A stretch of 64,000 bases of DNA from Rhynchobatus australiae. Taxonomy: Eukaryota. Both the position numbers and the translations under genes were made by a program. The DNA is taken from NCBI GenBank assembly GCA_034780895.1, contig JAUZTB010000069.1, forward strand, positions 5,825,870 through 5,889,869, read 5' to 3'. A model generated the notes under the pieces. That model was not told the DNA's origin. It saw nothing but the letters and a program-made list of their open reading frames with translations, and searched no databases. Below, in pieces: positions 12,201-15,200 of the stretch (its first letter is position 1; the number at the start of each line of letters is the position of its first letter).

Positions 12201-15200
12201 TCAGAACATTAAATATGTTCAGTTTAACAGTTTATAATATTTTCAGCAAGGTGTCGTCATAAATATGCACTTATCCTTTTATAAAAAGGAAAATAACAGC
12301 ACACCAACAAAGGTTAATACTTGTAAGAAGTAATAAATTATTTAACACTGATATCAAGTTTGAAGAAAAAAGATCATCTGTAAGTATTTATTTTAAAGAT
12401 TAGCCAGAAATGTTTGTTCATACTGATTGTGTGTGTGTGTGTGTTGCCAGATGAACCAATTCCCAGGTTGAATGCACAAGCCCAGGCTGCTGAGGATATT
12501 CTGGATAAATACAGAAGTGCTATTAAACGGTCCAGCCCTAGTGAAGCAGTTGCAAATGATGAGGTTACAGGTAGGTCATATTACTGTTCACTTTAGTCTA
12601 GAAAAGTTACTTGACCTTATCTGTTGTTACTGAAGTGATGGTGTGTGATCTTGTATGAACAGGGGACAAAATGGCACCATTGATGTATGGTTTATATAAT
12701 AGTTGGGTCATTGAGCTGTCAGTGTGTACCAGAAAAAAATTGGTTGTCGTATCACTTTGTGAGGAGATTACAACTATCTAGGAACCTCCATAGGATCAGC
12801 CCATATTGAAATGTAGCCTATTAACTTCTAGTGGCTAGCTTTGATGTTTGATGTTAATAGAGCACACTGCCAACTTGGAATAACCTGAAAACAGAAATAG
12901 GAAGAAAGTTTGATAACAACGTTACAGAATTAGCTATTTACTGTAACTCCTATGGAATTTGTATTACTACAATGCAAACTAATCTCTATTCTGTTTTATT
13001 TAAAAAGTTGGTCTATTTTAATGACTCCAATATATTGTTTTAGGGTACCCCAGTTGTATCTGGGAAATGGGAAGTAGATTTATGTTGTGTGTTTCTGATT
13101 TGGGATGTAGGATCAGGATTATTAGAGGAATTGATCTTAAATTGTAATATCAACAGAAACAATGGAATTATCTCAACAACTTATGATGATCATTCAGACA
13201 AAGATACTGGCTTAAATTTGCATCCTAGTAATTTAGGCTTGTTATTTCCCCCCAAAAGCCTTACAGAGCAATCTGTTTTTATACTTTTGATATTATTGTA
13301 TCTTTGATACAGTTACAACAATAACAGCATTTCAAAAAGGACTTCATTGCTTGTTGGACATTTGGGATTGTCCTTTGATTGTAAAAGCAAGTCCATTTTT
13401 TTCCTTTAATATATTTTTTATATTATATATTCAGGCTCGTTTCTTGTTGTCCAAAGTAAATCCTTCACAGACCCACAACAACATGTATGCGTGGGGACAG
13501 GTAAGTCTGTCTGTTTTACACTCTAAAAGAATGTTATTTTTCTTAGTCAATGGAATTGGAATTAAAAACCTGTAGAAAGTAATGACTTATTTCCATTGCC
13601 AACTGCATACACTGGCTAATAGACTTATGTACTCCCAGACTGTAAGTTAGAATCTTCTGCAGTTTGCCTGTTTGCTTCCACTTGATGTCAATACTTACTA
13701 ATCAAATGAAGGTATGATTTCAGATGTTTATGAAAAGGTAATATGAAAAAAATGATAGCAGAGGATGCAATATCTAAGGATGTATCACCATTAATGATTA
13801 ACTAAAAAATGCTATTGTTCAGAACTTGTAAGAACAACTGAACCACTCAACAACAATGTTCCCTCAATAGTAATCTTATTGATTTTGTGACTTAAAAATT
13901 TACACAATAAATCAACAAAGTGGATTAAGTTAACCTAGATACAAGATTTCAAATTCTGAAGGGCACTGCCTTTTGTAGTGTGATCTATGCTCATAAAAAC
14001 TAGCTAATTATTCCAGAAAATGACAAAGTAGCTTGTACAATTAACTTCCTATGTGAATCTTTCCATTAGGAGGCTGGAGCACCAATTCTCACTGATGATG
14101 TCAGCTTGCAAGTATTCATGGATCATCTGAAGAAGCTAGCAGTCTCTAGTGCCACCTGAATGTAGAACGGTGGTGAATTAATGTGAGCCATGCAGTGAAC
14201 AAAAAGAGATTTAGCAACCTATTCAGTGCAGATTATATTATGCATTTACATCTGTGCCACTTGCCTTTTTGACAGAACAAATTTATATTGAATTGATAAT
14301 AGACCAAAGAAGGTCTTGTGAATTGCTTGACTTTGTTAGATATATTATTGCTTTTGTCCTATCCTGTATAAAGATATGCTGTATAAGTTGTGCATCTATA
14401 TACACTACAGTGAGAAGCACTGACCCAGAGTTTCTAATTTCTGCNNNNNNNNNNNNNNNNNNNNNNNNNNNNNNNNNNNNNNNNNNNNNNNNNNNNNNNN
14501 NNNNNNNNNNNNNNNNNNNNNNNNNNNNNNNNNNNNNNNNNNNNTTTGGAGAGAGTAATTGAATCTTACAGAAGAATGTCTCCTGTTAACCCAAGTTATT
14601 TGCTGATCACAGCTAGTGTAACAGTGGGAATGATGCGGTGCCATAAGTTTGGGAAAGAGATGAAAAGTTGAGTTGTTACCATTTATTGCTACCCAGCAAC
14701 TCCAGCCAAAAGTGTGTACGAGTGTTGACATTGGATGAAGATAGGATCAAACTCAGTTGTGAATTCCTCATGGGAATCTAGCATTCCAGCTTTCACTATC
14801 AAGGCTGTTGTATAAAGAACGCATGGTTGACCATGAAGTTGTCCCACAGCAGGGGATCAAATGTTTTCAGCAGAGGGAGGGAAGAAAATGTGATTTAAGA
14901 TGGTGCTTTCCCAGCAATCCTTTCATTGCCCATGGTCAGTTGAACTTCAGTTCACTTTGTCTGACAGCCTTGCATAGTTATTTGGAGCTCCAGGTCCAAA
15001 CTATTCCTGTTAAATCAACACAAGTGCTATTGAGTGTGTTTGTTATGTATCAGACCCATTTGTATTGGTTGGNNNNNNNNNNNNNNNNNNNNNNNNNNNN
15101 NNNNNNNNNNNNNNNNNNNNNNNNNNNNNNNNNNNNNNNNNNNNNNNNNNNNNNNNNNNNNNNNNNNNNNNNTTGGTTGGTTATTGTTCAGGGCTGCCGT

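Follow-up and report, generated by a model that had tools for sequence, protein, structure and literature searches.

Introduction

Exons of one gene found inside an intron of another belong to a familiar category, that of partial gene duplication at the DNA level or of exon capture into an intron (a natural gene trap). Chimeric contigs of de Bruijn short-read assemblies are the second system to which the locus described here can be compared. A common smallest value of k in multi-k assemblers is 21. As a preprint on assembly by de Bruijn graphs points out, a non-branching path is certain to be a substring of the genome only if no branches are missing (bioRxiv 10.1101/2024.07.10.602853).

The locus lies in an assembly of Rhynchobatus australiae. 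The window, i.e. the whole stretch of 64,000 nucleotides that was analysed, is located at G000:C69:5825870-5889869. It places the last two exons of SEC23A, which encodes a vertebrate COPII inner coat protein, within an intron of GAPVD1. From the sequence comparisons reported below, positions 12996-14444 of the window are very probably the native 3' end of SEC23A, misjoined into the GAPVD1 intron during assembly; the animal itself would show no such rearrangement.

Results

SEC23A exons inside a GAPVD1 intron

The features of the region are as follows (X1, X2, X3 and X9 are sequencing runs, see below).

12451..12570, + strand: GAPVD1 exon, upstream host exon; 120 nt, phase 1 at both ends
12571..13016, + strand: genuine 5' part of the GAPVD1 intron; the GAPVD1 contig reaches 12998 in X3 and X9, 13010 in X2 and 13016 in X1 (0 differing letters)
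12996..13016, + strand: AT-rich 21-bp word shared by the GAPVD1 and SEC23A sides, likely the false join
12996..13434, + strand: 3' part of the SEC23A intron preceding the penultimate exon; X2, X3 and X9 have it in one contig with the SEC23A exons
13435..13500, + strand: SEC23A penultimate coding exon; 66 nt, residues 715-736, phase 0
13501..14069, + strand: SEC23A last intron; 569 nt, GT..AG, single copy in the assembly
14070..14159, + strand: SEC23A terminal exon, whose coding part comprises residues 737-765 and the stop TGA
14160..14444, + strand: inferred start of the SEC23A 3' UTR, cut by the gap
14445..14544, no strand: 100-N run; the right-hand junction is unsequenced
14545..15259, + strand: genuine 3' part of the GAPVD1 intron; shares a contig with 10468-12998 in X3 and X9; 100-N run at 15073-15172
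15260..15386, + strand: GAPVD1 exon, downstream host exon

The initial annotation described the intact last two exons of a SEC23 gene, with their 569-nt intron, on the sense strand of a GAPVD1 intron, and both sequence and translation agree with this description. The exons at 13435-13500 and 14070-14159 translate without disablement; the first is preceded by an acceptor AG and followed by GTAAGT. Their peptides match PDB chains of human SEC23A (residues 715-736, E 1.1e-9; residues 737-764, E 2.6e-11), similarities which, judged by alignment, far exceed chance. An upstream SEC23 exon was found nowhere in the window, as had been stated before and as protein searches confirmed. The foreign piece begins at about 12996, not at 13435. 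Neither AATAAA nor ATTAAA is present in 14160-14444. At position 14414, 31 letters from the contig end, the window has a G and all four aligned runs (X1, X2, X3 and X9) have an A; this G is possibly a consensus error or an allele.

Both host exons, 12451-12570 and 15260-15386, are on the same strand as the SEC23A exons and are consecutive in shark and ray GAPVD1. They are joined directly in 28 of the 29 named chondrichthyan GAPVD1 proteins, the other being a chimaera model with a 7-residue insert, and no SEC23 sequence lies between them in any of the 29. The acceptor of SEC23A, on the sense strand, would be out of frame with GAPVD1: a stop would come after about 30 codons, upstream of the VPS9 exons. 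The window is free of N from 10440 to 14444 and the next N-run is 14445-14544; no gap thus separates the GAPVD1 exon from the SEC23A exons, as first noted.

Identity of the paralogue and number of copies

The window codes for residues 714-765 of SEC23A, identical (52/52) to those of five ray SEC23A proteins. Of the shark SEC23A cluster, which has 22 members, 15 are listed, and 12 of these have the same last 52 residues. Compared with the SEC23B of the same genome, the exon boundaries are the same, and the codon differences are silent at 28 positions and alter the residue at 3. By these comparisons the paralogue in the window is SEC23A, not SEC23B.

The sole match of the DNA at 13380-14444 in the genome is itself. 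For the terminal-exon peptide there are two places, the window and C76:95274177 (SEC23B). A genome search with the Sec23 helical domain led to gene bodies on C76 and C1, and the 35 matches of full-length SEC23A in the whole genome fall on C1, C76 and the window alone. On C76, 740 residues of the five ray SEC23A proteins are covered at about 86%, and both last exons are there; we infer that the gene on C76 is SEC23B, with a complete 3' end.

The parent locus of SEC23A

On C1, at 103.941-103.977 Mb, 649 residues of the five ray SEC23A proteins are covered with 98.6-99.5% identity. They correspond to residues 1-329 and 369-688; residues 330-368 and 689-765 are absent there. The gene on C1 and the window complement each other without overlap, no residue being covered twice. 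The third-to-last exon on C1 breaks off in the middle: residue 688 is its last, and a run of 121 N (103977336-456) follows. Residues 689-713 occur in the genome only within SEC23B, their SEC23A version being absent from the assembly. A single DNA match, together with a C1 gene lacking its 3' end, makes the window copy the only SEC23A 3' end that these searches place in the assembly.

The initial annotation had advised a search of the same assembly for the parent gene: 13380-14444 retrieved only itself, and the body of SEC23A was found on C1 without the piece. A genuine SEC23 locus devoid of exactly these exons had been named as the sign of a misplaced contig, and such is the state of C1. A parent locus without the piece and with its exon cut at an N-run is also what is expected of a chimeric contig. 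Partial gene duplication is not supported, as daughter and parent are not both present: there is one DNA copy, and the other terminal exon is that of SEC23B.

A real translocation could have moved the 3' end of SEC23A to GAPVD1 and truncated SEC23A, or a GAPVD1-SEC23A fusion could have been selected. The intact, conserved exons (28 silent against 3 residue-changing codons relative to SEC23B) would suit either event, but the native end of SEC23A shows equal conservation anyway (12/15 listed cluster members). Moreover the gene on C1 stops mid-exon at an N-run, with no sequenced breakpoint, the fusion is out of frame, and, judged by title and abstract, neither of the two papers found to name both genes concerns a fusion. 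We consider both events as hardly credible.

Whether gap or withheld stretch, the run of 121 N is too short to hide the 1,449-bp piece, and so is every later run to 104.03 Mb, the longest N-run in the 52 kb behind the break being 590. A native slot was sought by overlap: at the 23 N-runs of C1 between 103.975 and 104.03 Mb, the edges share at most 7 letters with the ends of the piece. When 100 kb of C1 were compared with window 10440-17439 by BLASTN, all matches were at repeat level. Behind the broken exon, C1:103978640-103979800 is an AT-rich, unique-looking stretch with an AATAAA at 103979290; it could be distal 3' UTR or intron of SEC23A.

The SEC23A exon for residues 330-368 is missing assembly-wide, its expected place (C1:103958615-103961441) containing N-runs of 14 and 857. 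With this exon lost too, the assembly has SEC23A only in fragments, independently of the window. GEMIN2 is the neighbour of SEC23A in human; a search for its family found one exon only, at C2:47257330-47257440, not beside SEC23A on C1, which may reflect a rearrangement or a misplacement. A synteny search with the MAPKAP1 domain gave no match anywhere, the controls being silent too; neither synteny result is counted here for or against any reading.

Contigs of independent sequencing runs

Parts of 12400-14444 are contained in 19 runs, among them a second sample with the label of X1 and RNA-like runs, none being recorded as RNA; all are available as contigs, which lose rare variants. Four of them (X1, X2, X3 and X9) were aligned to 10440-17439 with a threshold of 85% likeness; 32 pieces are listed and 99,995 others omitted. 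X2, X3 and X9 bear other organism labels than X1, those of X3 and X9 being labels C and D, from different studies.

X3 and X9 each have a contig (9,360 and 8,451 letters respectively) that aligns to 10468-12998, resumes at 14548 and 14553 and continues to 16296. These contigs have 79 letters between 13016 and 14545 versus 1,528 in the window. The SEC23A piece, 12996-14444, is carried by separate contigs of 7,155 and 7,248 letters in X3 and X9 and of 1,949 letters in X2. There it is flanked by letters that do not align to 10440-17439: 295, 1,653 and 1,658 before it and 205, 4,057 and 4,150 after it in X2, X3 and X9 respectively. The SEC23A intron and UTR are about 96-98% identical to this non-GAPVD1 contig of the relatives. 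As to the GAPVD1 side of X2, its contig departs from the window at 13010 and goes on for 225 further letters; the X2 contig covering 14637, of equal depth, is probably the same one.

X1 is the best-matching run, with eight listed pieces differing from the window by 0 or 1 letter; it is not necessarily independent of the assembly. An X1 contig of 397 letters matches 12655-13016 exactly over 362 letters, and its remaining 35 letters do not fit the window. At 12962 the depth of X1 equals that of this one departing contig, and among the listed pieces none from X1 crosses the junction; a short one could figure among those omitted. The GAPVD1-SEC23A junction is in fact absent from the listed contigs of the four runs: X3 and X9 bridge the intron, X1 and X2 leave the window at 13016 and 13010. 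The gap-free stretch had been read as a sign of real adjacency, a reading that fails here, as the contigs change locus at 12996-13016, inside that stretch. The GAPVD1 intron of relatives, which the initial annotation had advised to check, is without the insert in the X3 and X9 contigs, and no SEC23 is present in the 29 chondrichthyan GAPVD1 proteins.

Because the organism labels of X2, X3 and X9 differ from that of X1, their contigs exclude an old insertion but not a private one. They bear on the idea that the piece is the remnant of an old third SEC23 paralogue, or a processed pseudogene, nested in GAPVD1. Its position is what speaks for this idea. The retained intron, the 52/52 identity to SEC23A, the GAPVD1 intron of the relatives without the piece and the presence there of the intron and UTR on a non-GAPVD1 contig all speak against it, and we regard it as almost negligible. 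For the processed pseudogene in particular, the initial annotation had already ruled it out by the retained intron, and rightly, this being genomic DNA with its intron; the candidate was rejected on the 569 nt of intron kept and on the lack of a target-site duplication at the ends.

A 21-bp overlap at the left junction

The alignments on the SEC23A side begin at 12996 in X2, X3 and X9, and that on the GAPVD1 side ends at 13016 in X1. Therefore about 21 AT-rich bases are common to both loci, an overlap pieced together from alignment ends in different runs. The word 12996-13016 has one copy in the assembly G000, as is expected from two merged occurrences that have both lost their true neighbours. 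For a genome of this composition and size, repeats being ignored, chance alone would give about 6 million pairs of places with a common 21-mer, versus about 14 for 31-mers.

We propose that, in a low-coverage short-read assembly, this chance word fused both loci in a small-k assembly graph. In that graph the correct way out, into the GAPVD1 intron, would have been a short dead end (35 letters in X1) and would then have been dropped, the stretch of about 79 bp past it being missing from the assembly. The path would have run on through SEC23A until coverage stopped at 14444, and GAPVD1 would have been resumed by scaffolding behind the 100-N gap. In the animal, SEC23A and GAPVD1 would both be ordinary.

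The same overlap equally fits microhomology, and therewith a recent copy of the 3' end of SEC23A inserted in the GAPVD1 intron of the individual or species by microhomology-mediated repair, the identical copies being collapsed and the parent gapped. The left junction is indeed gap-free in the window, and a collapsed duplicate would likewise leave one copy in the assembly. But X1, the best-matching run, has a contig passing 13016 into other letters, the right junction is a gap only, and there is no target-site duplication at the ends of the piece, whose longest shared word is 6 letters. The depth of X1 contigs on the piece (5.3-7.3) resembles that of the flanks (5.0-8.1), a weak argument, contig depth being no copy number. 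The out-of-frame acceptor, with a stop before the VPS9 exons, would likely be harmful, and a second exon that is likely displaced (PKR) is found in the same window. Such an insertion appears very unlikely. If very recent, it would amount to a heterozygous natural gene trap stopping GAPVD1 before its VPS9 (Rab5 exchange) domain, to which we give an equally slim chance.

A probably misplaced PKR exon and other defects of the assembly

A lone kinase-domain exon of PKR (EIF2AK2) is located at 49851-50033 of the window (+ strand), 70-74% identical to ray PKR. The gene body, at G000:C2:10.524-10.576 Mb, is without two exons (residues about 432-494 and 491-539): the first is that of the window and the second is at C66:31631043-31631189, so that PKR exons are spread over three scaffolds (C2, C66 and C69). 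N-runs of 3,883 and 1,259 occupy the place of the missing exons on C2. The window exon is likely a second misplaced piece, judging by these positions; a second PKR-like gene could also be its source. The window contig ends with the same 55 letters with which C2 restarts after the 3,883-N run. This link between the PKR contig and C2 is only suggestive, as these letters form a repeat with 3 exact copies within 250 kb.

The assembly consists of 81,522 contigs, and in three regions that were measured the median length of a gap-free stretch is about 2 kb. At four 100-N runs of the window (15073-15172, 35043-35142, 54765-54864 and 63737-63836) the flanks overlap by 8, 30, 17 and 12 letters respectively. 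These four are probably zero-length gaps; run X9 has no letters between the flanks of 15073-15172. Fragments of LINE reverse transcriptase (RVT_1) at 17424-18065 and 51924-52409 (both - strand) are ordinary decayed repeats. A Pfam scan of 15 ORFs of the window revealed nothing beyond kinase, RT and VPS9 matches.

Discussion

The SEC23A tail nested in GAPVD1 is very probably not a real feature. Of the options given initially, the chimeric contig is supported by the SEC23A gene on C1, which is without these exons; duplication or capture is disfavoured by the single copy and by the contigs of relatives, which are without the insert. As biology the arrangement has no significance, both genes being most likely ordinary. 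As for the assembly, the locus can change within a gap-free stretch, and exons of another gene found inside introns should be compared with the parent gene before they are weighed. If this assembly were annotated, SEC23A would appear truncated and PKR incomplete, and a false GAPVD1-SEC23A model might result.

Compared with exon capture into an intron, i.e. a natural gene trap, the locus is similar in having sense-strand exons, with their own intron and acceptor, in a host intron. It differs in that no second copy, sequenced right junction, target-site duplication or supporting listed contig is found here. As a chondrichthyan orthologue of SEC23A the piece is typical, residues 714-765 being identical to those of ray SEC23A; its sole difference is that the assembly puts it on C69 and not on C1 after residue 688. 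The closest parallel is the chimeric contig of a de Bruijn short-read assembly in which data are missing: one short word is shared by two unrelated loci, the assembly lacks the true continuation and the contig passes from one locus to the other without a gap; nothing essential differs.
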